From Gammaproteobacteria bacterium (GTDB taxonomy: Bacteria > Pseudomonadota > Gammaproteobacteria > QNFE01): 64,000 nt of DNA. The stretch covers positions 10,359-74,358 of the forward strand of contig QNFE01000001.1 of NCBI GenBank assembly GCA_003645455.1, written 5' to 3'. Under the pieces are notes generated by a model. It was not told the origin of the DNA, did no database searches, and was given only the letters and a program-made list of their open reading frames with translations. How positions within the stretch are numbered: position 1 is the stretch's first letter; the number at the start of each line of letters is the position of its first letter. The position numbers and the translations under genes were made by a program. Positions 6,924 through 62,792 of this stretch are shown here, in pieces.

Positions 6924-8002
6924 CTTATTTTTAAGGATGATAGTCCCACTAAAACCAAAATGATTGAAACTATCCAAAAACGCACTATAATTCGAGGCTC
7001 CATCCATCCCATCATTTCAAAGTGATGATGCAGCGGTGCCATTTTAAATACTCTTTTCCCTCTTGTTTTGAATGACACCACTTGAATAATAACACTTATT
7101 GTCTCAGCCACAAAAACACCTGCCATAATAAATAAAACTATCTCTTGGCGAATTATAACTGCTACAATTCCCATTGAGGCTCCAATTGATAATGAGCCAA
7201 CATCACCCATAAAAACTTCGGCAGGATAGGCATTAAACCACAAAAAACCAAGACCTGCTCCCACCATAGTTCCACAAAAAATAGCAAGTTCTCCTGTGCC
7301 TGAAATATGTGGAATTCCCAAATAATTTGAAAAATAAAAATGCCCTGTGACATAGGCGAAAATACCCAGTGCACCGCCTATCATAACAGAGGGCATAATC
7401 GCTAAACCATCCAGACCGTCGGTAAGGTTTACGGCATTTGATGAGCCCACAATTACCACGAATGCTAAGGGTATAAATAAAAATTCCATTTGCCACTGAA
7501 AATCTTTTACATAGGGTAAAATTAGAGTTGTTGTAATATCCTTATCCACGAATAAATAAAGATAGAACACAGCAACAAGAGTTAAAATAGATTGTAAGCT
7601 AAATTTTACACCAGCACTTAGCCCTTTTGAGTTACCGTACTTTAATTTTTTATAATCGTCAACAAAGCCTATCATGCCAAAAGATAGGGTTACAAATAAT
7701 GTAATTAAAATATAAACATTAGTTATATCTGCCCACAGTAGGGTAGATACACTCATAGATAACAATAACATTATGCCTCCCATAGTTGGTGTTCCTGTTT
7801 TTTTCAGATGGCTTTGGGGGCCGTCATCACGAATGCTTTGTCCTATTTTATTTATTTTTAAATATTTTATTAAAAATGGTGCCATAATAAATGATAATAT
7901 TAAAGCAGTTAAAACTCCTAACACGGCTCGCAGAGTAAGATATTGAAAAACATCAAAACCGCTATGGTATTGCGATAAATATTCTGTAAGGTAAATCAGC
8001 AT
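6920..8002 (-). CDS. mraY: Phospho-N-acetylmuramoyl-pentapeptide transferase
   Basis: Ten-transmembrane MraY/WecA family protein of 360 aa, conserved in the dcw position. Confidence 0.9.
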
Positions 8003-16663: not shown

Positions 16664-18574
16664 TTGTATTTATTAAAAAATAAAATTATGAGCAACCTCT
16701 ACGAACACATAAAAAAAGTCCTTGCCAAAAATGAAAATTATTGCAAAAATGGCAAATTATTTAAAAATATAATTGTTGAAAATGCCTTAAAACTCACCCC
16801 TGATTTGTTGGAGTTGTTGTTATCTGATGAAAAAGCCACCAAACATTTTTTTACCAAAATAAACACAACCTATGTTTTTGATAAAATCAAATTTCAAAAA
16901 TTTGTCTCCAACAAACAATTTTTGCCAGATAGTTATACGGCTTTTAAAAATAAAATAGGGCTTACTGTTGATGATGAATATCTAACCGAAGCAGGCGAGG
17001 TTGTTTTATCATGGCCGTATAAAGACTGCATATTAGAGGGCGGACAAACCAAAGAAGAGCAAAAAAAAGACGAAGTTTTTTATAATGAAACTCTTGCCCC
17101 TGACGAAATTGACAGGCTTTTTGAACCCAAAGCCTTGACGAACTTTAAAAGATATGACAAAGACGGCGAACATAAGGTAACCGATATATCAATAAATGAT
17201 AATTTTATCATCAAAGGCAATAATCTCTTAGCCCTGCATTCTTTGAAAAAAGTTTATAAAAATAAAATAAAACTGATTTATATTGATCCACCATATAACA
17301 CAGGCAACGATGGTTTTAATTATAATGATAGCTTTAATCACAGCACCTGGCTTACTTTTATGAAAAACCGCTTGGAAGTTGCAAAGGAATTGTTAAGAAA
17401 TGATGGGGTTATTTTTGTGCAGTGCGATGATAATGAGCAAGCCTATTTAAAAATCTTGATGAATGAGATTTTTGACAGAAAAAAAACAGATTATATGGTG
17501 TGGCAAAAAACAGACCCAAGATACGACCAAAACACAAATGCAAAAGTTATAAAAAGGTTTAAAAGAATACATGAGCATATTTTGATTGCATATAAGGGCG
17601 ATAAAAACAACTATAAATTTAATAAAATTATGAGATTGCCAGAGTGGACAAAAAAGCAATCTAATCCCGATAAAGATCCAAGAGGTTGTTGGCAATCTGG
17701 AATTGTTTCTTATGAGGAGGGGCATAAAAATGAGGATAAAAACTCTGAATTCTATTACACGATAGAACTTCCAAGCAAAAGAAAGATGACGAGACATTTT
17801 TTTGTAAAGCAAAATGAATTTAATAATTTGCTGAAAGACGGTAGAATTTATTTCCCAAAAGAAGGTGACGGTATTCCAAGAATAAAAATCTTTGAAGATG
17901 AAGAAAAAGAATATCACTGCGATTCAATTATGAGAGGGTTTGGCACAAGTTCAACTGCAAAAAAAGAATTAGAATTATTAGAGTTTCCTTTGGGTAAATT
18001 TGATACTCCAAAACCTGAAAAATTGCTTGCGGAAATTATAAGAATGACAACCAAAGAAAATGACATAGTCCTTGATTTTTTTAGTGGTTCTGGCACGACA
18101 GGTTCTGTCGCCCATAAAATGAATCGTCAGTATATTTTAATCGAACAAATGGATTATATCCATGATTTACCAGAGGAGAGATTAAAAAAAGTTATCGCAG
18201 GCGAGCAGGGTGGCATCTCAAAATCTGTTAAATGGCAAGGAGGAGGAGGTTTTACATATTTAGAATTAGCAAAAAACAGCACCAAATATGTTGATAAAAT
18301 AGAGCAAGCGACCAACTCAAAAACTCTTTTAAATATATGGAATAACTTAAAAAAAGAAAAATTTATCTCTTATAAAATAACAATAGATGAAGTTGATAAA
18401 ATAATGGATGATTTTAAAAAAATGGATATCAAGCAACAAAAACTCACTTTAATGGCAATATTAGATAAAAATGATTTGTATGTAAATCTATCTGATATAA
18501 ATGATAACGATTACCAACTTGATAAAAATACCAAAACTTTAAATGAAGTTTTTTATAATAATGGCAACAAATAA
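16664..18574 (+). CDS. mod: Type III restriction-modification system, Mod subunit (N6-adenine DNA methyltransferase)
   Basis: The DPPY motif IV (LIYIDPPYNTGND) precedes the FxGxG motif I (DFFSGSGTTG), the beta-class order typical of Type III Mod proteins. The 3' end overlaps the res start by 32 bp. A 'tataat' -10 element lies upstream. Confidence 0.8.
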   Translation: MYLLKNKIMSNLYEHIKKVLAKNENYCKNGKLFKNIIVENALKLTPDLLELLLSDEKATKHFFTKINTTYVFDKIKFQKFVSNKQFLPDSYTAFKNKIGLTVDDEYLTEAGEVVLSWPYKDCILEGGQTKEEQKKDEVFYNETLAPDEIDRLFEPKALTNFKRYDKDGEHKVTDISINDNFIIKGNNLLALHSLKKVYKNKIKLIYIDPPYNTGNDGFNYNDSFNHSTWLTFMKNRLEVAKELLRNDGVIFVQCDDNEQAYLKILMNEIFDRKKTDYMVWQKTDPRYDQNTNAKVIKRFKRIHEHILIAYKGDKNNYKFNKIMRLPEWTKKQSNPDKDPRGCWQSGIVSYEEGHKNEDKNSEFYYTIELPSKRKMTRHFFVKQNEFNNLLKDGRIYFPKEGDGIPRIKIFEDEEKEYHCDSIMRGFGTSSTAKKELELLEFPLGKFDTPKPEKLLAEIIRMTTKENDIVLDFFSGSGTTGSVAHKMNRQYILIEQMDYIHDLPEERLKKVIAGEQGGISKSVKWQGGGGFTYLELAKNSTKYVDKIEQATNSKTLLNIWNNLKKEKFISYKITIDEVDKIMDDFKKMDIKQQKLTLMAILDKNDLYVNLSDINDNDYQLDKNTKTLNEVFYNNGNK

Positions 18575-21203
18575 CCAAATATTAGAACAAAAAATATCAG
18601 CGGCGATTTCAATGGGTTTTATTCCTGTTGAGGTGAAAGATTCTATAAAAAACAATTTGAACCCTACATTAAAACTTCGCCCATATCAAATCGAAGCTTT
18701 GGCGAGGTTTGATTATGCGGTGAACACCTATCCTAATCGGCAAAAACCTACTCAATTGCTTTTTCATATGGCAACAGGTAGCGGTAAAACTTTGATTATG
18801 GCAGGTATAATTTTGGATTTATACCACAGAGGTTATAATAATTTTGTATTTTTTGTTAATAGTTCTAATATAATTGAAAAAACTAAAGATAATTTTTTAA
18901 ATTCGCTATCTGCCAAATATCTTTTTAATCAAACCATATCAATACAGGATAAACAAATAAACATTAAAGAGGTTGATAACTTTGAGGCAACAAATAATGA
19001 TGATATAAATATTGTTTTTACAACGATTCAAGGTTTGCATACAAGATTAAATACCCCACGAGAAAACTGCCTAACCTATGAAGACTTTGCCGATAAAAAA
19101 ATTGTGTTGTTATCTGATGAAGCCCATCATATCAATGCGACAACCAAAAAGGGCAAAAAAACCAAAGATGAATTAGCAAAAATTGCCAGTTGGGAGGGGA
19201 CTGTTAATAAAATATTCCAAACAAATGATGATAATTTATTATTAGAATTTACAGCAACTGCCGATTTGAATCATCCGGAGATCAAGAAAAAATATCAAGA
19301 TAAATTATTATTTGATTATCCGCTAAAACAATTCAGGGAAGATTTATATTCCAAAGAAGTGCAAGTTTTACAAGCCGATTTAGGGCAATTTGAAAGGGCA
19401 ATGCAAGCGGTTATTTTAAATCAATATCGCAGGAAAATATTTGAAAAAAATAAAATCAATATAAAACCTGTTATTTTGTTCAAATCAAAAACCATTAAAG
19501 ATAGCGAATTGTTTTTTGATGAATTTATAAGCGGCATAAAAAACTTAAAAAACACTACTATTAATAAAATCAGAGACAATGCAACAAATCAGATAATTCA
19601 AAAGGTTTTTAAATACTTAGATAATAACGATATAAAAAATGAAAATTTTATAACCGAGATTCAACAAGATTTTACAGATGATAAATGCATGGTGGTTAAT
19701 AGTAAAAATGATAGTATTGAAAAACAGTTAATCGTCAATAGTTTAGAGGATGAAAATAATGAATATCGGGCTATTTTTGCCGTTGATAAACTAAACGAGG
19801 GCTGGGATGTTTTAAATTTATTTGATATAGTGAGGTTATATAATACAAGAGATACAGATCATAAAAGCGGTAAGGTTGGCAAAACTACGATGTCAGAGGC
19901 ACAACTTATCGGCAGAGGGGCGAGATATTGCCCTTTTAAAATTGAAAAAACTCAACCATTTTATCAGCGAAAATATGACAAAGATATTCAAAATCAGCTG
20001 CGAGTTTGTGAGGAGTTATATTATCATTCAGCCCATAATCCAAAATATATATCGGAGTTAAATAAAGCTTTGGTTAATATCGGCATCAAAGCGAATAATG
20101 CAGTGCAGAGAAAATTATTTTTAAAAGATAGTTTCAAACAAACAGATATTTTTAAAAACGGAGTTTTGTGGACAAATGATAGGATAAAATATGATTGTGC
20201 GGATATTTATGGTTTGGCAGATCATATCAAAAATAAAATTTATCACAAAAAATTCCTGACAGGTTATTCTTATGTAAAATCTGCATTTGATGATAATGAG
20301 GAGAAAACCTGCAACACAAGAGAGACCAAAACATATGATATAAAATCATTCGCCCCTAATATTGCTCGCAAAGCTTTGAATAGACTGCCATTTTATCGTT
20401 TTAATAATTTGCAAAAATATTTTCCTAATTTAAAATCTATCAGTGAGTTTTTGTCATCAGATAGTTATGCAAAAAATATTCAGGTTGAAATTACAGGATT
20501 AACAGAACAGGTTCAAAATCCATCAAATCAATTAACATTAGATACAGCGATTAGTGTATTTGATGAAATAGCCCAAGCAATTCCACAGGATTATTATGAC
20601 TACAAAGGCACCAAAGAATTTAAAGCTCAAAGCATCCAACAAATTTTTGCCACTGACAAAGAGTTGAATTTTAATATCAATCAAAATAGCAAACAAGAAT
20701 ATGGCACAGGACAAAACGACACAAAAAATCAAGATTTATTACTTGATTTATCACAAGAGAGTTGGTATGTATTTAATGATAATTATGGCACATCAGAAGA
20801 AAAATATTTAGTCAAATATATCAAGCAAGCCTATCAATTTTTAGCAAAAAAATATAATCAAATATATTTAATTAGAAACGAGAGACATTTTAAATTATAT
20901 ACATTTGATGAGGGGCAAGCCTTAGAGCCTGATTTTGTTTTGATTTTAAAAAAAGATAAAAAATCAAAATCCATTATCAGACAAATTTTTATTGAACCCA
21001 AAGGCACAGATAGATTATCAAATGATGACAGTAAAACAAAAGAGAGGTTTTTGTTGCAGATTGAAAAAGAACATAAAATATTAACTATTTTTGAAAACAA
21101 AGATTATAAACTTATCGGAATGCCCCTTTTTAATCAAACTCAACACAAAAAAGAATTTGTGGAGAGTTTTAAAAAAACGATTGATTTATCCGCAAATCAA
21201 TAA
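18543..21203 (+). CDS. res: Type III restriction enzyme, Res subunit (SF2 helicase-nuclease)
   Basis: Helicase motif I (ATGSGKT) and motif II (DEAHH). It is 886 aa, sits immediately downstream of mod and overlaps it. Confidence 0.8.
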   Translation: MKFFIIMATNNQILEQKISAAISMGFIPVEVKDSIKNNLNPTLKLRPYQIEALARFDYAVNTYPNRQKPTQLLFHMATGSGKTLIMAGIILDLYHRGYNNFVFFVNSSNIIEKTKDNFLNSLSAKYLFNQTISIQDKQINIKEVDNFEATNNDDINIVFTTIQGLHTRLNTPRENCLTYEDFADKKIVLLSDEAHHINATTKKGKKTKDELAKIASWEGTVNKIFQTNDDNLLLEFTATADLNHPEIKKKYQDKLLFDYPLKQFREDLYSKEVQVLQADLGQFERAMQAVILNQYRRKIFEKNKINIKPVILFKSKTIKDSELFFDEFISGIKNLKNTTINKIRDNATNQIIQKVFKYLDNNDIKNENFITEIQQDFTDDKCMVVNSKNDSIEKQLIVNSLEDENNEYRAIFAVDKLNEGWDVLNLFDIVRLYNTRDTDHKSGKVGKTTMSEAQLIGRGARYCPFKIEKTQPFYQRKYDKDIQNQLRVCEELYYHSAHNPKYISELNKALVNIGIKANNAVQRKLFLKDSFKQTDIFKNGVLWTNDRIKYDCADIYGLADHIKNKIYHKKFLTGYSYVKSAFDDNEEKTCNTRETKTYDIKSFAPNIARKALNRLPFYRFNNLQKYFPNLKSISEFLSSDSYAKNIQVEITGLTEQVQNPSNQLTLDTAISVFDEIAQAIPQDYYDYKGTKEFKAQSIQQIFATDKELNFNINQNSKQEYGTGQNDTKNQDLLLDLSQESWYVFNDNYGTSEEKYLVKYIKQAYQFLAKKYNQIYLIRNERHFKLYTFDEGQALEPDFVLILKKDKKSKSIIRQIFIEPKGTDRLSNDDSKTKERFLLQIEKEHKILTIFENKDYKLIGMPLFNQTQHKKEFVESFKKTIDLSANQ

Positions 21204-40319: not shown

Positions 40320-43300
40320 TTATTTATCCTCAATAATTTTTATTTTATCAATCTGTTGCATTATTTTATTTGTTTCAAAAAGCACATAAATAATTTTTTG
40401 ATAGTGAGTTATGTCTGTGTTTGATAACTCGTAATCTTGGTCTTTGCGAGATTTGAGCCATTTTTGTAAAGGCTGATAACCGCCGATAAAAAAATTCCAA
40501 GCGATAGATGGCACATTATCAAAATATTGATTTTTATTTATCCACACTTTTCCTGTGCCATCTTTTTCTTTGCTTTCTATAAAAGTATGTTTTTCTACTG
40601 TCGCATCTCCATCTCCTTTAAATGGACTTATTATATCCGTTAATTCTATATTTTCCATTAAATGCAACTTGCGAAGTGTTGCACCTTTTTCAATACATTG
40701 CCAAAATGTTTTTTTATCCGCAGGATATGGCACACGAGGGAAATCAATTTTTAAAAACTCTTGGTATTTCTTGCGGTATTTTGGTGAATGCAACACAGCA
40801 TAAATATAATCCAAAATATCAATCGGCGATAGGTAATTTTGAATTTTTTCTGCTTTAAATTCTAATTTTAAATTGTCTGCTATTTTTTCAACAATTTTCA
40901 TATCCAAGTTAGGTTTTCTACTCTTTTCTGTGAACATTCCATCTGATTCTTTGTCTGGGTAAAGATATAACGGACAAACATAATCTCCTCCTTGCATGCC
41001 AGGGCGAGACCAACTTCTAAAATCAATTATATTTGCAGAAACAAAACAAGGTGAAGCATTTTTCTCTACAAAACCTCTTTTAAAAACCAATCCAATATTT
41101 TCAGTTTTTAGAAAATGAGACATAACCTCGCCTCGTGGCATACACAAAAAACCTTTTGATTTTTTGGAATAATAAGTCCATCTATTATCAAATGGACGAT
41201 ATGATATTTTTGTTATTTTTTTAAAATCAACTCCTGTTTTAATTAAATCTTTTTTTGCATATGAAATTTTCCAGTCACGAACATCCTTGCCTAATTTAAA
41301 ATGCTCTCTTGCCTCCTCGTCATCTAATTTTAAAAATTTTTGAATAGTTTTTTTAACCTCATCTGCTGTTTTATGAATAGTAAAGTTATCACGAGCTGTT
41401 ACTATGCCAACAGAATTGATAGGAAATAAATCTGTCAAAACAAAACCTTTATCATATTCGGCTTGGGCTTGGTAATCTTTGGGTTTAAAAAAATAATAGG
41501 GTTCTTGTGGTTTTAATTTTTCAAATTGAATACTTGTCAAATCATTTTCTAATAAAAAACCATATTTTGCTTGGCGTTTTCCGTAGAGATCAAAATGAAA
41601 AACTTTGGCTAATTTATTTGATAAGTTTTTGTTTTTTGCTGACAAGGGGACATGTCCCCTTGCTAAACCATGTCGTTTTTTCTTGATGAAAATATTGATA
41701 CTGACCCCTTGCATAATATCAAATACATTTTGATCTTTTGTGCCATCAGGGCAGACTTCCTTTTTTTTACTGTTGCCGTGTAAATCTATGATATAAATTT
41801 TATCATAGGTTTTTAAGAGATTGTGCCTCATGCCACGAAAGGTGGGGTTATCTAAAAAGCCGTGAGGGTTGATGAAGGCTAAAATTCCTTCGCCATTTTT
41901 TTCTATTAAATTTTGTGAATATTTAATAAACTTTACATAATCATCGTTAAGCCATTTTGAATTTTTTTCTTGTAATTTGCCACCTGTTGGCTCTTTTTTA
42001 TAATCATCTAATAGGTTTTCTATCCATTTGCCTTTGTTTGATGATTCACCGGCATAAGGCGGATTGCCTAAGACAATCATAACAGGGGTGTCTTTTTTAA
42101 CTCTATCGGCGGCACGAGACTCATCAGATAACCATTTGGCTCCAAATAATGACAAACCAGCATATTCGTGTTCTGGCTCTAAACTATTCGTCAAAAATAC
42201 ATTAAAACGATTATTGTTTTTGTCGTCTTTTTGATAACCTGTTGTTTTTAATAACATTTGTAATTTAAGATGACACATAGCATAGGGGGCAAGCAGTAAT
42301 TCAAAGCCGTTTAATCTGGGAATTAAATCTTCATCAACATATTTATGCCAACCGCCGGAGTTCGTGGTTTTTATGATATCGGCGATATATTTTATCACCT
42401 CACATAAAAAAGTGCCTGTGCCGCAGGCAGGGTCTAAGATTTGCACTTTATGAACTTGTTTGGTTGTTTTGGTTTGAGTTTTAGGGTCGTCAAATTTTAT
42501 ATTAACCATGCTTGTGTCACAAATCCCATCGCTTATTTTAAAGTCTTTTTTTAAAACATCATCACAAGCTTTGATGATAAATTTAACAACAGGTTCCGGG
42601 GTATAATAAACTCCACGAGATTTTTTTAATTGGGGGTTATAATTATGCAAAAATGTTTCATAAAAATGAATCATCGGATCTTGTGTGGCAGTTTTTTTGC
42701 CAAAGTCTTGTAGGATATTAGATAAATTAGCATGACGGAAAATATCAACCAAAGCATCAACAATCCAGATAATTTCTGTGTCTAAATTTGCACCGCCAAC
42801 ATATTCAAACAAATGTCGTAAAAATGGATTAGTGCGAGGCATAAGCTCCATTGCCTCATATCTTGAAAATGATTGCGGTGTTTTGTCGTGTAATCTGGCA
42901 GCAAACAAACCATAAGTTATAGTCTGGGAATAAATATCAGCAAAACTTGCCTCATCTAAGTCTTTTATTAGTATTTTTTGAAAACTAGTAAATTGCTCAT
43001 AAAGATTAGTGTTTTTGCAATCATCGCCGCAGGTTAAAGCTTTGTAAATTGCATCTTTTAATGTTTGGGCTTTGAGTGCCATAAGCGAGGCTAATTTTTC
43101 GGCTGTGTTTATTGTTGTGCCGTTATAAGCACAAAAGTTTTTTAAAAGATTTATAAAAGGTGCAAAGTTATCATTGATGGGTTTTATTTTATTGTTGGTT
43201 ATCGTAGCAATTTGAATAGTTTCAAGTTTTTTGATTTTATTGTCATCAGTTTTTTGATAGAATCTAAATTCAATATAATTAGTTGTCATTACATTGTCAA

Positions 43301-43610
43301 GTCGGCTGACATATCGCAATAATTGATTGTTGTTGTCTCCTTTTTCTAAGCCATCTAATAGGTTGTTTTTTAAATCTTTGGCTTCAATATAAGCGGTTGG
43401 AACTTTGTTTTTATTCTGCACTAAAAAATCAGGAGCACCACATTTTTGTTGTTTTGGTTCGTTGGTTATTGTAATATCTTTGATAAGGTTTTCTATAAGA
43501 TTTTTAAAAGCTGGACGATAGCTGTGTTCGGTAGCCTTGCCACTTTGGAAAAGATCTGTTACATTTTTTAAATATTCTTTGATATATGTTATATGCTTAG
43601 GTGGCTTCAT
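40320..43610 (-). CDS. Single-chain restriction-modification enzyme of Type IIG/IIL (MmeI-like) architecture: N-terminal PD-(D/E)xK nuclease, gamma-class N6-adenine methyltransferase, C-terminal target-recognition domain
   Basis: 1096 aa. PD...EAK nuclease motif near aa 60 (GAPDF...YIEAKD). Methyltransferase motifs YYTPEP, DPACGTGTFL (motif I) and GNPPY (motif IV). C-terminal TRD-type signature 'YIYAVLHSPKYRKKYQEFLKIDFPRVP'. No helicase domain, so not Type I, III or ISP. Confidence 0.7.
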   Translation of the reverse strand: MKPPKHITYIKEYLKNVTDLFQSGKATEHSYRPAFKNLIENLIKDITITNEPKQQKCGAPDFLVQNKNKVPTAYIEAKDLKNNLLDGLEKGDNNNQLLRYVSRLDNVMTTNYIEFRFYQKTDDNKIKKLETIQIATITNNKIKPINDNFAPFINLLKNFCAYNGTTINTAEKLASLMALKAQTLKDAIYKALTCGDDCKNTNLYEQFTSFQKILIKDLDEASFADIYSQTITYGLFAARLHDKTPQSFSRYEAMELMPRTNPFLRHLFEYVGGANLDTEIIWIVDALVDIFRHANLSNILQDFGKKTATQDPMIHFYETFLHNYNPQLKKSRGVYYTPEPVVKFIIKACDDVLKKDFKISDGICDTSMVNIKFDDPKTQTKTTKQVHKVQILDPACGTGTFLCEVIKYIADIIKTTNSGGWHKYVDEDLIPRLNGFELLLAPYAMCHLKLQMLLKTTGYQKDDKNNNRFNVFLTNSLEPEHEYAGLSLFGAKWLSDESRAADRVKKDTPVMIVLGNPPYAGESSNKGKWIENLLDDYKKEPTGGKLQEKNSKWLNDDYVKFIKYSQNLIEKNGEGILAFINPHGFLDNPTFRGMRHNLLKTYDKIYIIDLHGNSKKKEVCPDGTKDQNVFDIMQGVSINIFIKKKRHGLARGHVPLSAKNKNLSNKLAKVFHFDLYGKRQAKYGFLLENDLTSIQFEKLKPQEPYYFFKPKDYQAQAEYDKGFVLTDLFPINSVGIVTARDNFTIHKTADEVKKTIQKFLKLDDEEAREHFKLGKDVRDWKISYAKKDLIKTGVDFKKITKISYRPFDNRWTYYSKKSKGFLCMPRGEVMSHFLKTENIGLVFKRGFVEKNASPCFVSANIIDFRSWSRPGMQGGDYVCPLYLYPDKESDGMFTEKSRKPNLDMKIVEKIADNLKLEFKAEKIQNYLSPIDILDYIYAVLHSPKYRKKYQEFLKIDFPRVPYPADKKTFWQCIEKGATLRKLHLMENIELTDIISPFKGDGDATVEKHTFIESKEKDGTGKVWINKNQYFDNVPSIAWNFFIGGYQPLQKWLKSRKDQDYELSNTDITHYQKIIYVLFETNKIMQQIDKIKIIEDK
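41643..41662. repeat. 20 bp perfect palindrome 'caaggggacatgtccccttg' inserted in-frame in the RM gene
   Basis: Encodes ...RH-GLARGHVPLS-AKNK... A GC-rich island in an AT-rich gene. It is a variant of the 22 bp palindrome at 44389 and 50525. Confidence 0.6.
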
Positions 43611-43999
43611 ATTTGCTGTTGTTGTAAGTCTGACACAATTTCGGCAATTTTAATAAAATCGTTATCATTGTGAACCAAGATTAAATCATTTTCAATGGCA
43701 CAACAGGCGATAAGGCAATCTATTGTGGAGCGAATTGTTATACCTTTTTGGCGGCATTTCATATAAATGTTGGCAGAGTTTTCATAACTTTTTAAATTAT
43801 CTTGCAATGAATAAAATTTTTGTTGATTTAGTATGTTTTTTAATTTGTTAAAAAGTGATGTGTTTTTTGCACCCTGTAAAACTTCCATATAAATTACACC
43901 AGTTATTGCAGTTTGTTTTTTTGCATATAATGTTTTTATAAAATCAGTAGAATTATTATTAAATAAATCAATCCAAATAGAAGTATCAATTAAATACAT
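43607..43999 (-). CDS. vapC: PIN-domain toxin (VapC family)
   Basis: N-terminal 'MYLIDTSIWIDLF' PIN signature with conserved acidic residues. 130 aa. Its stop overlaps the RM start codon as ATGA. Confidence 0.75.
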   Translation of the reverse strand: MYLIDTSIWIDLFNNNSTDFIKTLYAKKQTAITGVIYMEVLQGAKNTSLFNKLKNILNQQKFYSLQDNLKSYENSANIYMKCRQKGITIRSTIDCLIACCAIENDLILVHNDNDFIKIAEIVSDLQQQQI

Positions 44000-44012
44000 T
44001 TATGCAAAGGTT

Positions 44013-44267
44013 TTATTTATATTTTGGCAGAGAGCGGGAGCGCATTGCTTTATAATCGTAGCCTTCAAAAAATGGACTTTCTCCATCTAATGATTTTATG
44101 AGCCAATCTAAACCATTGTTTTTGTGATTTTCAATATATTCGTGCAAAGCTTTGTCAATTATCGCTCTTTTGCTTTTAAGTTTGCTTAATTTTAAAGCTT
44201 GTTGCACTATATTTTCATCCAAAACAACATTTGTGCGGTGTAGGGTTGGTAACATTTTAACTCTCAT
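44013..44267 (-). CDS. vapB: VapB-type antitoxin (ribbon-helix-helix, Rv0623-like)
   Basis: 'TNVVLDENIVQQALKLS...KRAIIDKALHEYIE' resembles RHH antitoxins. It lies 13 bp upstream of vapC. Confidence 0.6.
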   Translation of the reverse strand: MRVKMLPTLHRTNVVLDENIVQQALKLSKLKSKRAIIDKALHEYIENHKNNGLDWLIKSLDGESPFFEGYDYKAMRSRSLPKYK

Positions 44268-51414: not shown

Positions 51415-52056
51415 GTGGTGCTTTTACCTGGAAATGTTGTAAAAGAATTTAGGTTAAAAAAAGATGAAGAGTGGGCTTCTAATATTGCCAATAAATACAA
51501 TATAAAAATTATTTATGAGAAATATTCAATAAAAAAAGGAGATAAGAACAAAGGGAATCACTATGCACTTTATGCCAAATCTGGCAATCAAAATACAGGT
51601 GAGCAAAAATTTGCTACATCAACAGAAGTTAATAATGATAGCGATTTATACAAATCTTTGGCTGATGAAATAAATAAAGGCGACAGAACAATTAGTTTAA
51701 AACATGTAGAAATTGGAGTTCTTATTTGTGGTGAAAACAATATATTGGTAAACAAGCAAGCCAAACAAAATAAAGTAAAATGGCGATACGAGCAACCAAA
51801 AATAAACTGGAATCCCAAAATAATCATTAACCCATCGCACAATTCAATGGGAAATTGGAATAAATTAAATAAACGATTTGAGTTTTTAAGCAAAAAATTT
51901 GAATATGTTATTTATCTTACAAACTCATCACACAAAACCTTTGGCAAAAGCAGCCTGAGAGTGTATAAAAAAGGAGTAGAAATTAAAAATGGAGAAAAAC
52001 CTGATTTCAAAACAAATGACAATAAAGCTATTGGCTGTATAGTGGAAATTATATAG
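51415..52056 (+). CDS. Hypothetical protein; likely remnant of a longer ORF (51307-52056) interrupted by an in-frame TAA
   Basis: An ATG at 51307 overlaps the sdhB stop as ATGA and is in the same frame. A TAA at 51394-51396 lies inside an A-rich tract (gaaaaaTAAaaaaaac). I see faint carbon-nitrogen-hydrolase-like motifs (IDVVLLPG, GVLICGEN) but cannot confirm them. Confidence 0.35.
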   Translation: MVLLPGNVVKEFRLKKDEEWASNIANKYNIKIIYEKYSIKKGDKNKGNHYALYAKSGNQNTGEQKFATSTEVNNDSDLYKSLADEINKGDRTISLKHVEIGVLICGENNILVNKQAKQNKVKWRYEQPKINWNPKIIINPSHNSMGNWNKLNKRFEFLSKKFEYVIYLTNSSHKTFGKSSLRVYKKGVEIKNGEKPDFKTNDNKAIGCIVEII

Positions 52057-52124
52057 TTGCAAAAAAATATCTCAAAAATTAAAAATGTTGCAAAATAGAA
52101 TTTAATTATTATATAATATGTTTT

Positions 52125-52376
52125 ATGAGTGACCTGAACAAGGTATTAAGCCAAATGAAAACTAATGCAAAAGGTGTTAGGTTTTCTGATATTCAAAAAG
52201 TTTGCAAACATTATTTTGGCAAACCCAGACAAGGCAGCAGCAGTCATTGTATTTATAAAACACCTTGGATTGGTAATCCGCGAATAAACATACAAAACAA
52301 TAAGGGGAAGGCAAAACCTTATCAAGTAAAGCAGGTTTTAATTGCAATTAACAAATTAGAGGCATACAATGAATAA
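52125..52376 (+). CDS. hicA: HicA-family mRNA interferase toxin
   Basis: 83 aa. The 'GSSSHCIYKTPW...KAKPYQVKQVL' core matches the HicA/YcfA fold. Confidence 0.7.
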   Translation: MSDLNKVLSQMKTNAKGVRFSDIQKVCKHYFGKPRQGSSSHCIYKTPWIGNPRINIQNNKGKAKPYQVKQVLIAINKLEAYNE

Positions 52377-52863
52377 TCAAGTTGATAAATATACATACAG
52401 AGTAATATGGTCGGAGGAAGATCAGGAGCATATAGGGCTTTGTGCTGAGTTCCCAAGCCTAAGTTGGTTGTCCGAGTCACCACAAAAAGCATTAGAAGGC
52501 ATCACAGATGTTGTAAAAAAGTGCATAGAAGATATGCAACAACACAACGAAAGCATTCCGCAACCAATCGCATACAAAAAATATAGTGGAAAATTTAATG
52601 TGAGACCTTTGCATAATTCAAGTGCTGTTTAGAGAGGACAGAAAATAGTGCATTTTTATAGCAAAAATGAGGAATATGGTAATTCCCTTTGACGAATTTT
52701 TGCTATGAAAAGGTGCATTTTATGTGTTTTATAAATTGTGCTTGAATTATGCAAAGGTCTCAATGTAAGTGTGCCACCAGAGGTTCACAGAAGCCTTTGT
52801 ATCCAGGCCGCTGAATCAGGAGTAAATTTTAACTCAATGGCGAGCGCTAAATTATCCCTGTAA
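52369..52863 (+). pseudogene. hicB: HicB-family antitoxin split by a 160 bp MITE-like insertion
   Basis: The N-terminal HicB domain (YTYRVIWSEEDQEHIGLCAEFPSLSWL) ends 8 codons into the MITE's left end, with the premature stop at 52630-52632. The C-terminal RHH region (PEVHRSLCIQAAESGVNFNSMASAKLSL, stop at 52861) resumes in frame immediately after the insertion. Confidence 0.7.
52602..52761. mobile_element. MITE-like element (160 bp) with 21 bp terminal inverted repeats and a 5 bp target-site duplication
   Basis: Terminal inverted repeats 'gagacctttgcataattcaag' and 'cttgaattatgcaaaggtctc'. The flanking 'aatgt' is duplicated (52597-52601 and 52762-52766). A nested internal palindrome is present (atagcaaaaat...atttttgctat). 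No transposase gene is in the window. Confidence 0.7.
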
Positions 52864-52935
52864 GAATAAAAATTCAAAAAAAACAAAAATATCTGTTGTT
52901 GTTTCTGGCTAAACTGAACCCTACTCCCAAAAAGT

Positions 52936-52963
52936 CTTGACTTTTATGGAATAGAGGTTATAA
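52936..52963 (+). promoter_or_regulatory. Putative sigma70 promoter for the DUF4143 ATPase gene
   Basis: -35 TTGACT at 52936-52941, a 16 bp spacer, and -10 TATAAT at 52958-52963. The ATG at 52972 would make the transcript nearly leaderless. Confidence 0.4.
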
Positions 52964-52971
52964 TAGTCGGC

Positions 52972-54111
52972 ATGAAAAGATCTTTAATTCCATCAATTCA
53001 ACAAGACTTAAAGCAAAAAATGGTTTTGCTTACAGGTCCGAGGCAAGTTGGTAAAACCTATCTATCAAAAGATATTATAGCCGATTATGATTATTTTAAT
53101 TATGACTATGGCGATGACAGGCAAGCTATGGCTGATATGGCTTGGAACAGAAAATCCGCACTTATTATTTTTGATGAACTTCATAAAAAACCTAATTGGA
53201 AAAATTGGTTAAAAGGCATTTATGATGTTGAGGGGATTCCACCTGCTATTTTGGTGACAGGTAGTGTCAGATTAAATACCTATCTTAAAGCATCCGAGTC
53301 TCTCGCCGGTAGATTTTTTCAAATAAGACTGCATCCTCTGGATTTAAAAGAGTTATATCACAAAGATAAAACTATTGATTTGACAAAAACATTTGATAGT
53401 TTGTTGCAATTTGGTGGTTTCCCAGAGCCTTTTTTGAAAAAATCTGTTAAATATTATAATCGCTGGAAGCAGTCGCACTTGGATGTAATTATTCGCCAAG
53501 ATTTAATTCAAATTGAACAGGTTCGCCAAATAACTAAAATTGAAAACCTTATCCAACTTTTACGAACAAGAGTAGGTAGCACAATATCATATCAAAACCT
53601 GTCGCAAGATTTAATGTGCTCTAACAAAACGGTTAAAAACTGGTTAGAGATTTTAGAAAATATGTTTGTTGTTTTTAAGGTTTTGCCCTATAACAAAAAA
53701 ATAAACCGCAGTTTAAAAAAAGCCCCCAAATATTATTTTTATGATACAGGGCAGGTGATGGACGATAAAAATAAAGGTGCAAAATTTGAAAATCTGGTCG
53801 CCTGTGCTTTTAAAAAAGAAATTGACCACCAAAAAGACTGCCAAGGAGAGAATTATAAATTAAATTTTTTACGCACCAAAGATGGCAAAGAGGTTGATTT
53901 TTTAATCTGCCAGGACGACAAACCGATTACAATGATTGAGGCAAAATATAGCGATGATAAAATCCACAAACATTTTGATTATTTTGATAAACAATTACCA
54001 AATATAGAAAAAATTCAACTAATTGCCAAAGACTTAAAACGAGAAAAAACCTATGCAAACAATCTATCAATCACGGATGCAACAAGCTATCTTGCGAGAT
54101 TAAGTTTTTAA
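52972..54111 (+). CDS. AAA-family ATPase with DUF4143 domain
   Basis: Walker A motif (LTGPRQVGKTYL) and a Walker B-like motif (LIIFDELH). 379 aa, AAA_14 plus DUF4143 architecture. Confidence 0.65.
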   Translation: MKRSLIPSIQQDLKQKMVLLTGPRQVGKTYLSKDIIADYDYFNYDYGDDRQAMADMAWNRKSALIIFDELHKKPNWKNWLKGIYDVEGIPPAILVTGSVRLNTYLKASESLAGRFFQIRLHPLDLKELYHKDKTIDLTKTFDSLLQFGGFPEPFLKKSVKYYNRWKQSHLDVIIRQDLIQIEQVRQITKIENLIQLLRTRVGSTISYQNLSQDLMCSNKTVKNWLEILENMFVVFKVLPYNKKINRSLKKAPKYYFYDTGQVMDDKNKGAKFENLVACAFKKEIDHQKDCQGENYKLNFLRTKDGKEVDFLICQDDKPITMIEAKYSDDKIHKHFDYFDKQLPNIEKIQLIAKDLKREKTYANNLSITDATSYLARLSF

Positions 54112-54163
54112 TTATCAATTTTTAACTTTCAACTATAAGCTCTTACAAAACTTTTTATTGTTC

Positions 54164-54604
54164 TTATCGGCTTTTAATTTCATCAATAGCGAGTTTGGTG
54201 AATTTTATTTGTTGCCAAAATTTATTCATAATTTCATCAAACATTATTTTTGTTTGTTCTGGCAGGTAATCATGAACCATTTTGTTTCTAATTGTTCGCA
54301 TTTGAATCCAAGTCTCTGCACTCTCTACAATAGATAATTTTTCCATTGTATTGATTAAATCACGATACGAAAGAGTTGGAGTTGCATTTTTATAAATATC
54401 GTAGGTTTTGAAATATTTTATAAAAATCTCAACACAACGGATAAATCTATCTGCCAAGGCATCATATGGCTCTAACTCATCGTAGGAATAGTCATAATCT
54501 GCTTTATAGGGTTCTAATTTTTTAATTGAAGCCTGCACGAGGTTATATACCCGATTAACCTTATTTTTTGAATCTGTTAGCAAAACTTCAAAATTATCAG
54601 TCAT
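54164..54604 (-). CDS. hepT: HepT-family toxin (nucleotidyltransferase substrate-binding, HI0074-like)
   Basis: Rx4HxY motif (RNKMVHDY). 146 aa. Overlaps the upstream mntA by 4 bp. Confidence 0.65.
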   Translation of the reverse strand: MTDNFEVLLTDSKNKVNRVYNLVQASIKKLEPYKADYDYSYDELEPYDALADRFIRCVEIFIKYFKTYDIYKNATPTLSYRDLINTMEKLSIVESAETWIQMRTIRNKMVHDYLPEQTKIMFDEIMNKFWQQIKFTKLAIDEIKSR

Positions 54605-54885
54605 TTAATTTTTACCAGAGAAAGGGTTTTAACGAATGCTTTTTGTTGGGCTGTCATATTATTTTTATCAAAAATTATTACATCTAATTTAGCCTCTAAG
54701 TCATTATAAAATTGAGTGCTTATCTGGGTTGATAATTTAAACGGATCTTGTTTAGAGTAAATTAAAATATCAATATCTCCGCCTTTTTTATTATCATCCG
54801 CTCTGCTACCAAAAAGATAAACCTCATCATTTATATTTTCTAATGCTTTATTTAAGGCATTTTTTTCATCTTTGTATAATCTCAT
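54601..54885 (-). CDS. mntA: MntA-family minimal nucleotidyltransferase antitoxin
   Basis: GS-x9-13-DxD motif (LFGSRADDNKKGGDIDIL). 94 aa. Confidence 0.65.
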   Translation of the reverse strand: MRLYKDEKNALNKALENINDEVYLFGSRADDNKKGGDIDILIYSKQDPFKLSTQISTQFYNDLEAKLDVIIFDKNNMTAQQKAFVKTLSLVKIK

Positions 54886-62722: not shown

Positions 62723-62792
62723 GAGACCTTTGCATAAATCAAATGCTGTTTAGAGAATGCAGAAAATAGTGCTTGATTTATGCAAAGGTCTC
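62723..62792. mobile_element. Second, internally deleted copy (70 bp) of the MITE-like element, in the rlmH-ppsA spacer
   Basis: Terminal inverted repeats 'gagacctttgcataaatcaa' and 'ttgatttatgcaaaggtctc'. The flanking 5 bp 'attta' is duplicated (62718-62722 and 62793-62797). The core 'gctgtttagagaatgcagaaaatagtgc' is shared with the copy at 52602-52761. Confidence 0.65.

Follow-up and report, generated by a model that had tools for sequence, protein, structure and literature searches.

A MITE family sharing its ends with an IS5-family insertion sequence interrupts the hicB antitoxin gene of a gammaproteobacterium

Analysis of a 64,000-nt stretch of a gammaproteobacterial genome (contig QNFE01000001.1, positions 10,359 to 74,358; hereafter the window) revealed two small elements, e1 and e2, which very probably belong to one MITE family moved in trans by a 1,249-bp insertion sequence (IS) of the IS5 family present in the same organism or population, the copy located in hicB truncating the antitoxin. 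We infer the actual mobilisation by the transposase of this IS (P0193) and the consequences for HicAB from the anatomy of the elements and from what is established for DDE insertion sequences. As mobile DNA of bacteria, e1 is of an ordinary and well-documented kind. For a high-copy MITE from a poorly known gammaproteobacterial lineage, the consensus, size classes, target motif and autonomous partner are now defined; the value of this lies mostly in annotation and genome-evolution bookkeeping, and the current understanding of MITEs and of the IS5 family is unchanged.

Two copies of the element in the window

The original prediction of a 160-bp element at 52602-52761, with near-perfect terminal inverted repeats (TIRs) and AATGT on both flanks, was borne out, and the TIRs proved to be perfect, the termini GAGACCTTTGCATAATTCAAG and CTTGAATTATGCAAAGGTCTC being complementary at 21/21 bases (Table 1). 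In full, e1 is a single long imperfect palindrome, which folds as single-stranded DNA into one long hairpin (-41.5 kcal/mol, z = -11.8), and it is near the 159-bp consensus of the family, with at most 97.5% identity to individual copies. The flanking bases, T at -1 and A at +1 (T-AATGT-A), fit the family target consensus T-WWWWW-R. The 15-mer GAGACCTTTGCATAA is present exactly four times in the window, namely at both ends of e1 and of e2. Reading frames across e1 contain fragments of hicB only, and 160 bp and 70 bp are too small for a transposase gene; that the window holds no transposase, as had been proposed, agrees with tblastn searches using related IS5-family transposases, which found no IS5-family transposase in the window. 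Scanned in full against Rfam at gathering thresholds, the window gave 0 matches, and e1 is therefore not a curated RNA family.

Table 1. Coordinates of the MITE copies, their target-site duplications and the hicAB genes in the window.
Feature	Start	End	Strand	Remarks
MITE copy e1	52602	52761	+	160 bp; TIRs 52602-52622 and 52741-52761
Left target-site duplication of e1, AATGT	52597	52601	.	hicB codon 77 and first 2 bases of codon 78
Right target-site duplication of e1, AATGT	52762	52766	.	
Putative hicA toxin gene	52125	52376	+	83 aa, intact; 8-nt overlap with hicB start
hicB 5' part as now translated	52369	52632	+	87 aa: 78 native and 9 MITE-encoded residues (RPLHNSSAV)
hicB 3' part	52767	52863	+	C-terminal DNA-binding (ribbon-helix-helix-like) region, severed from start codon
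MITE copy e2	62723	62792	+	70 bp; TIRs perfect 20/20; internal-deletion size class
Left target-site duplication of e2, ATTTA	62718	62722	.	
Right target-site duplication of e2, ATTTA	62793	62797	.	

Regarding e2, which had been described as a 70-bp internally deleted copy at 62723-62792 with an ATTTA duplication of its own, the alignment agrees: it matches positions 1-50 and 132-160 of e1 and is thus an internal-deletion form. Its target, T-ATTTA-G, agrees with T-WWWWW-R, and its RNA hairpin has a folding energy of -35 kcal/mol (z = -8.9). The end-points of the deletion recur in at least six other 70-bp copies at different sites, so the 70-bp form is either a transposing sub-family or a recurrent deletion. 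The site is intergenic, 19 nt past the rlmH stop codon and about 115 nt upstream of ppsA, and the insertion between these genes is harmless. Scans for outward promoters and intrinsic terminators near e1 and e2 gave none that were convincing.

One further TIR match in the window, AAAACCTTTGCATAA at 43998-44014 on the minus strand (13/15 bases), has neither a partner nor a family-like interior and was set aside as a family end, being a chance match or a decayed solo end or relic.

The family in metagenomes

Scanning of JGI metagenome contigs for the extended TIR GAGACCTTTGCATAAWTCAAR returned at least 117 stretches (about 0.93 Mb), and the matches listed are nearly all from one JGI metagenome (Ga0164315), with a mean G+C of 33%, equal to that of the window. 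Among the matches listed there are at least 107 TIR-paired elements on these related metagenome contigs, falling into size classes of 159/160 bp (at least 55), 183/184 bp (at least 8), 96-98 bp (at least 8) and 70 bp (at least 6). Alignments to e1 of 140 bp or more were obtained for at least 82 further full-length copies, with 69-97.5% identity (median 85%), some of them being 95-97.5% identical to e1, and the consensus of the aligned copies is 159 bp long and near e1; all these copy numbers are lower bounds that apply to the collections scanned and not to the source genome. When the size classes are aligned, the 183-bp form proves to have 24 bp inserted in its central loop, and the 70-bp and 96-98-bp forms to result from deletion between short direct repeats (AAT[A/T]GTGC and GTGCATTTT). 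At least some 50 more ends are located 200 nt or less from where a fetched stretch stops, as is explained by repeats that broke the assembly, and the family accounts for assemblies of this organism breaking every few kilobases.

The view that the element is mobilisable and non-autonomous gained support from its many copies and from their target-site duplications. Among 90 copies in which both ends match the 15-mer with at most one mismatch, 53 have a perfect 5-bp duplication and 14 more agree at 4/5 positions, while control flanks taken 10 nt further out have identical 5 bp in 0/90, which excludes chance. The target logo, set against a background of 33% A and 33% T, is palindromic (T-WWWWW-R), with T at -1 in 79% and A (71%) or G (23%) at +1, together 94%. 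In-silico excision restored an ORF of 100 aa or more running through the junction in 9/56 cases; insertion into a gene is therefore a minority outcome, yet not unique to hicB.

Regarding the host, a GlmS search gave a nearest relative with 71% identity, which comes from an unrelated JGI sample, and a next one with 54%; judged by this search the host is a deep-branching gammaproteobacterium, placed no further. The MITE-rich organism of Ga0164315 may be of the same species as the organism of the window; what links them is equal G+C, MITE identity reaching 97.5% and an IS left end with 120 identical nt, rather than shared chromosomal sequence. The scan of viral contigs for the extended TIR gave 0 matches.

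One element of Ga0164315 carries a gene: at positions 315-1629 of contig Ga0164315_10000009 (L195), a 1,315-bp element with the family TIRs and a 5-bp duplication (AAAAT) encodes a 341-aa RhuM-family protein (Pfam PF13310, E = 1e-100) and no transposase, and is a passenger-carrying, mobile-insertion-cassette-like derivative of the MITE family.

The partner insertion sequence

A search for an IS with matching inverted repeats, which had been proposed as a check on the element, found one in the window's own assembly. This IS is 1,249 bp long with 33% G+C, has one ORF of 334 aa (P0193), and is bounded by GAGACCTTTGCATAATTAAAT and ATTTGATTATGCAAAGGTCTC, its TIRs matching at 22/23 bases; its ends read GAGACCTTTGCATAATTAAATAA and, for the right end as reverse complement, GAGACCTTTGCATAATCAAATAA. 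P0193 matches the NCBIfam model NF033581 'IS5 family transposase' with 247 bits (cut-off 140), and by sequence the IS is assigned to the IS5 family. In the MITE-rich metagenome, the IS left end followed by MSWKNTAQHS(F)ADAMLV is found at the edge of at least four stretches, and P0193, which was found by homology search with the nearest full-length transposase, has exactly that N-terminus.

The gene for P0193 is present on short contigs of the assemblies ERZ27227324, ERZ27245762 and JGI 3300010330, giving three IS copies that are 99.9-100% identical. ERZ27227324 is the window's own assembly (98-kb contig), in which the IS is on a separate contig, and the other two also contain window-identical contigs. 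These three short IS contigs are without a perfect duplication (4/5 bases in L240, none in L241) and may be repeat-collapsed assemblies. Related IS in complete sequences have 5-bp duplications, namely TTATT in the Bathymodiolus septemdierum symbiont genome AP013042 (L243), TAAGT (L028), CAGAA (L089) and TATCT (ISAba23). IS5 itself duplicates 4 bp, and the partner IS and its relatives are a 5-bp-duplication clade within the IS5 family.

Regarding the IS left ends seen in Ga0164315, three of them (L177, L186 and L215) have a 1-nt deletion that shifts the transposase frame after about codon 10, and a fourth (L227) is intact and identical to the IS of the window's assembly.

The sequence that the partner IS and e1 have in common is the terminal 16-17 bp only, GAGACCTTTGCATAAT(T), and past it the interior of e1 has no similarity to either IS end, so the element is a 'type II' MITE and not a deletion derivative of the IS. 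The partnership of MITE and IS is drawn from the shared ends, the equal length of the duplications and their co-occurrence. In the proposed mechanism, the DDE transposase of the IS would bind the shared terminal 16-17 bp of the MITE, acting in trans, and the hairpin-like element would be integrated at an AT-rich T-WWWWW-R site with a 5-bp staggered cut, repair of which would leave the 5-bp duplication. The 159/160-bp form would be the master, and the 70-, 96-98- and 183-bp forms may derive from it through loss or gain of sequence at short direct repeats in its interior.

Two other origins of the small elements bear on this partnership. They could be a true MITE served by another transposase, either that of a different IS5-family element with the same terminus or one that has since disappeared, and then the family may no longer be mobile. 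The 15-bp end is indeed used in several phyla by IS whose transposases are only 32-65% identical, MITE copies have diverged down to 69% identity and the assemblies checked show no insertion polymorphism. However, the partner IS matches e1 at 16-17 of the 17 terminal bases, occurs in the same assemblies and has the G+C of the host (33%), its copies are 99.9-100% identical, which suggests recent activity, and some MITE copies are still 95-97.5% identical to e1; we therefore consider another transposase very unlikely. It is more unlikely still that the small elements are relics of full-length IS that lost their interior in place and never moved themselves, for which the common ends and equal duplication length of IS and small elements might speak: the interior of the 159/160-bp form is unrelated to the IS ends past 17 bp, and more than 80 copies at different sites have the same interior and boundaries, which independent deletions cannot yield. 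Mobilisation in trans by the 1,249-bp IS is thus the preferred reading for both e1 and e2.

The interrupted hicB gene

The truncated HicB is ended by an in-frame TAG at 52630-52632, inside e1, and the 87-aa product is already present in NCBI as a 'HicB family antitoxin' (P0001) of a 'Gammaproteobacteria bacterium' MAG, a listing for which the MITE insertion accounts. A GTG-initiated ORF at 52738-52863, starting inside e1, could in principle express the 3' part of hicB; no ribosome-binding site is evident for this ORF.

That removal of the element restores the hicB reading frame, as had been claimed, was confirmed at the protein level. Joining 52369-52601 to 52767-52863 gives one ORF of 108 aa (...SGKFNVSVPPEVHRSL...), which matches the Pfam family HicB (PF05534) over residues 62-101 with 38.5 bits (cut-off 21; E = 1.1e-9) and also PHROG 497 'HicB-like'. 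Searching 5.8 billion proteins returned more than 3,000 homologues of the repaired HicB, nearly all of about 105-113 aa, with about 60-70% identity and a query coverage of 94-100%; the truncated 87-aa product alone matches at 100%. In 11/11 aligned homologues the junction is gap-free, SGKF(N/M)V(S/R)VPPEVHR, and since homologues align without a gap here, the 160 bp are an insertion and not ancestral sequence.

Regarding the position of the insertion within the protein, an AlphaFold model of the repaired HicB is poor overall (pLDDT 59) and has helices at residues 82-95 and 99-108, the one part modelled with confidence (pLDDT about 80). The insertion point lies four residues ahead of the first of these C-terminal helices, within the segment matched by the HicB profile, and in the model corresponds to the predicted ribbon strand of the ribbon-helix-helix-like domain. 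A PDB profile search with HicB gave nothing significant. The copy e1 landed between hicB codons 77 and 78, at the start of the C-terminal ribbon-helix-helix DNA-binding region, and according to the proposed mechanism the 87-aa HicB would keep the toxin-binding N-terminal domain while operator binding and autorepression would be lost. In HicB, the toxin is bound by the N-terminal region and the operator by a C-terminal ribbon-helix-helix (RHH) or HTH region (PMC6159526); by this division of labour, the 87-aa product should neutralise HicA and should not repress the operon. Such retention of toxin binding with loss of operator binding may explain how an antitoxin gene can bear an insertion. The split hicB is a natural antitoxin cut between its two functional domains and as such could be used to test autoregulation against neutralisation.

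Exact-protein look-ups for hicA, rlmH and an ATPase gene next to hicB led only to sites that were filled or to contigs that broke in the MITE, and to no DNA-level empty site; the insertion is present in every assembly that has hicA or rlmH in exactly this form, unless the assembly breaks inside the MITE, and these assemblies may sample one population. At the protein level, HicB homologues are uninterrupted at the e1 site. An independent assembly, that of SRR6478866 in Logan, contains both e1 junctions on contigs that end inside the MITE, as is expected of a repeat.

These data bear on the idea that the 160 bp are ancestral hicB sequence or a tolerated in-frame protein insertion like the Rickettsia palindromic elements. 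The original prediction had tied an ancestral origin to the lack of both other copies and an empty site; as copies are abundant, this case does not hold, and the part of it that stands is the missing DNA-level empty site. The element and one duplication also add up to 165 bp (160 + 5), a multiple of three. However, the TAG follows after nine foreign residues, none of the 11 aligned homologues has an insertion at this position, the more than 3,000 homologues being about 105-113 aa long, and the 160 bp are found again at over 80 loci that are unrelated and have duplications of their own, so this origin is scarcely conceivable. Equally remote is an assembly chimera in which a repeat was mis-spliced into the contig, as family repeats do break many contigs, but the two junctions were recovered separately in the Logan assembly and are joined in the ENA contig, and a perfect 5-bp duplication that restores a reading frame would be unexpected of a chimera.

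Regarding the surroundings of hicB, the region from sdhB to queA (51415-54885) resembles a small accessory island and contains a 213-aa ORF without a family match, the probable hicA, the split hicB, an AAA_14/DUF4143 ATPase gene (52972-54111) and, on the minus strand, a HepT-like/nucleotidyltransferase (MntA-like) pair (54164-54885). Elsewhere in the window, at 16664-21203 and 40320-43610, there are large ORFs with DNA-methyltransferase-like matches. Among the large ORFs, one of 636 aa has adenine methyltransferase motifs, one of 1,096 aa has a weak MAD2-like match and one of 886 aa has no NCBIfam match, and their sequences suggest possible restriction-modification or defence genes.

Comparison with known elements

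The Correia elements of Neisseria, the enterobacterial ERIC and the pneumococcal RUP elements are classic bacterial MITEs of about 100-160 bp with TIRs, a hairpin spanning the whole element and high copy number, and like e1 and e2 they insert in genes or beside them. In TIR sequence and in partner IS family they have no relation to the e1 family. Correia elements have a 26-bp TIR and a TA duplication, and a Correia element was ruled out for e1, since the TIR of the family begins with the 15-mer and its duplication is 5 bp long.

The terminus GAGACCTTTGCA is that of a documented IS5-family TIR class (PMC4596501), earlier examples of which are ISNme1, ISPg1, ISAba23 and the MITEs ATR and BrickBuilt. 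The TIR of ISNme1 of Neisseria meningitidis, a member of the IS5 family, GAGACCTTTGCAAAA, is identical to the 15-mer at 14/15 bases (Table 2 of PMC4596501), and this IS is the proposed parent of the ATR (AT-rich repeat) MITE (PMC4596501). ATR is a type II MITE tied to its IS by the TIRs only (PMC4596501), which is the relation found for the e1 family; it differs in its host and in the 19 copies quoted, whereas more than 100 were seen here, and the likeness was drawn from the ISNme1 TIR and the description of ATR, not from its interior.

Similarly, BrickBuilt/MITEPgRS of Porphyromonas gingivalis, with ISPg1 (IS1126)/ISPg4, has a TIR of the same class and IS5-family partners, and shares the TIRs alone with its IS (PMC4596501), as does the family in the window. 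BrickBuilt differs in its 23-nt minisatellite, its variable or absent duplications, its 19 copies and its phylum, whereas the e1 family has a simple long hairpin and a regular 5-bp duplication.

The named element closest to the partner IS is ISAba23 of Acinetobacter plasmids, also of the IS5 family, which is likewise 1,249 bp long, has a 5-bp duplication (TATCT) and encodes a transposase with 47% identity to P0193. Its ends are GAAACCTTTGCACGAA and GAGACCTTTGCACGAA, also given as GA(A/G)ACCTTTGCACGAA; however, it is an autonomous IS and not a MITE, and its TIR diverges past position 12. Mobile insertion cassettes (MICs), which are TIR-bounded passenger genes without a transposase, resemble the RhuM-carrying element of Ga0164315, whereas e1 and e2 carry no gene. 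A full-text literature search for the exact 15-mer found 0 papers in the library searched, and together with the lack of an Rfam match this makes e1 and e2 members of a new family of a well-known kind.

The same terminus in other genomes

A scan of a genome collection for the 15-mer returned at least 116 stretches (L001-L116). A search for the TIR had been proposed as a check, and both this and the metagenome scan found many further copies of the terminus. A paired element is present in 67/116 stretches among the matches listed, and at least about 80 small TIR-paired elements were counted among these matches, in Chloroflexota/Dehalococcoidia, Nitrospinota, Desulfobacterota and Gammaproteobacteria, including Bathymodiolus and sponge symbionts. 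Most of these small elements have 5-bp duplications. BLAST of e1 against the small elements of the at least 116 genome loci gave TIR-level matches only; MITEs of the genome collection, for example a 161-bp family of Bathymodiolus symbionts, have their ends in common with e1 and not their interior. Elements of 1.17-1.27 kb with the same ends are also present and encode proteins of 320-350 aa, which are IS5-family transposases (306 and 253 bits to NF033581; Pfam DUF772 and DDE_Tnp_1).

A wider reading is that the 15-mer marks one IS5-clade transposase system with an unusually broad MITE superfamily, comprising unrelated, lineage-specific families in marine, sediment and symbiont bacteria (those of mussels and sponges among them) of at least four phyla (Chloroflexota, Nitrospinota, Desulfobacterota and Gammaproteobacteria), and that the hicB insertion, more than simple damage, is a retained 'split antitoxin' that uncouples toxin neutralisation from operon autorepression; we regard this combined reading as unlikely.

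Several observations concern individual genome loci. The small elements of the collection are 100-320 bp long, unrelated and lineage-specific, and single cases of the 15-mer occur in MAGs labelled Thermoplasmata archaeon, Porphyromonas and Rickettsiales. In a Dehalococcoidia MAG (CBDCDO010000001.1, L036 positions 1198-2521), the same 15-bp TIRs enclose a 318-aa IS110-family transposase (DEDD_Tnp_IS110 and Transposase_20); here a local MITE of this TIR class probably harbours an IS110-type element. At seven G+C-rich Dehalococcoidia loci (L008, L068, L089, L007, L062, L075 and L108) the elements, as well as full-length IS, lie within palindromic targets that read TCC(C)-NNNNN-(G)GGA or CGCG-NNNN-CGCG, which suggests insertion into local palindromic repeats. 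The 8-kb stretch L068 has 11 TIR matches and two IS copies, and at its positions 2242-2551 (Dehalococcoidia chromosome OZ251500.1) three left ends at 84-bp spacing are followed by one right end, which is a tandem multiplication of one MITE arm. Finally, a gammaproteobacterial MAG (OZ244244.1, L115 positions 97-620 and 7376-7866) contains frameshifted transposase remnants about 80% identical to the IS transposase of L028; IS copies of that clade are decaying in this genome, which is sponge-associated.
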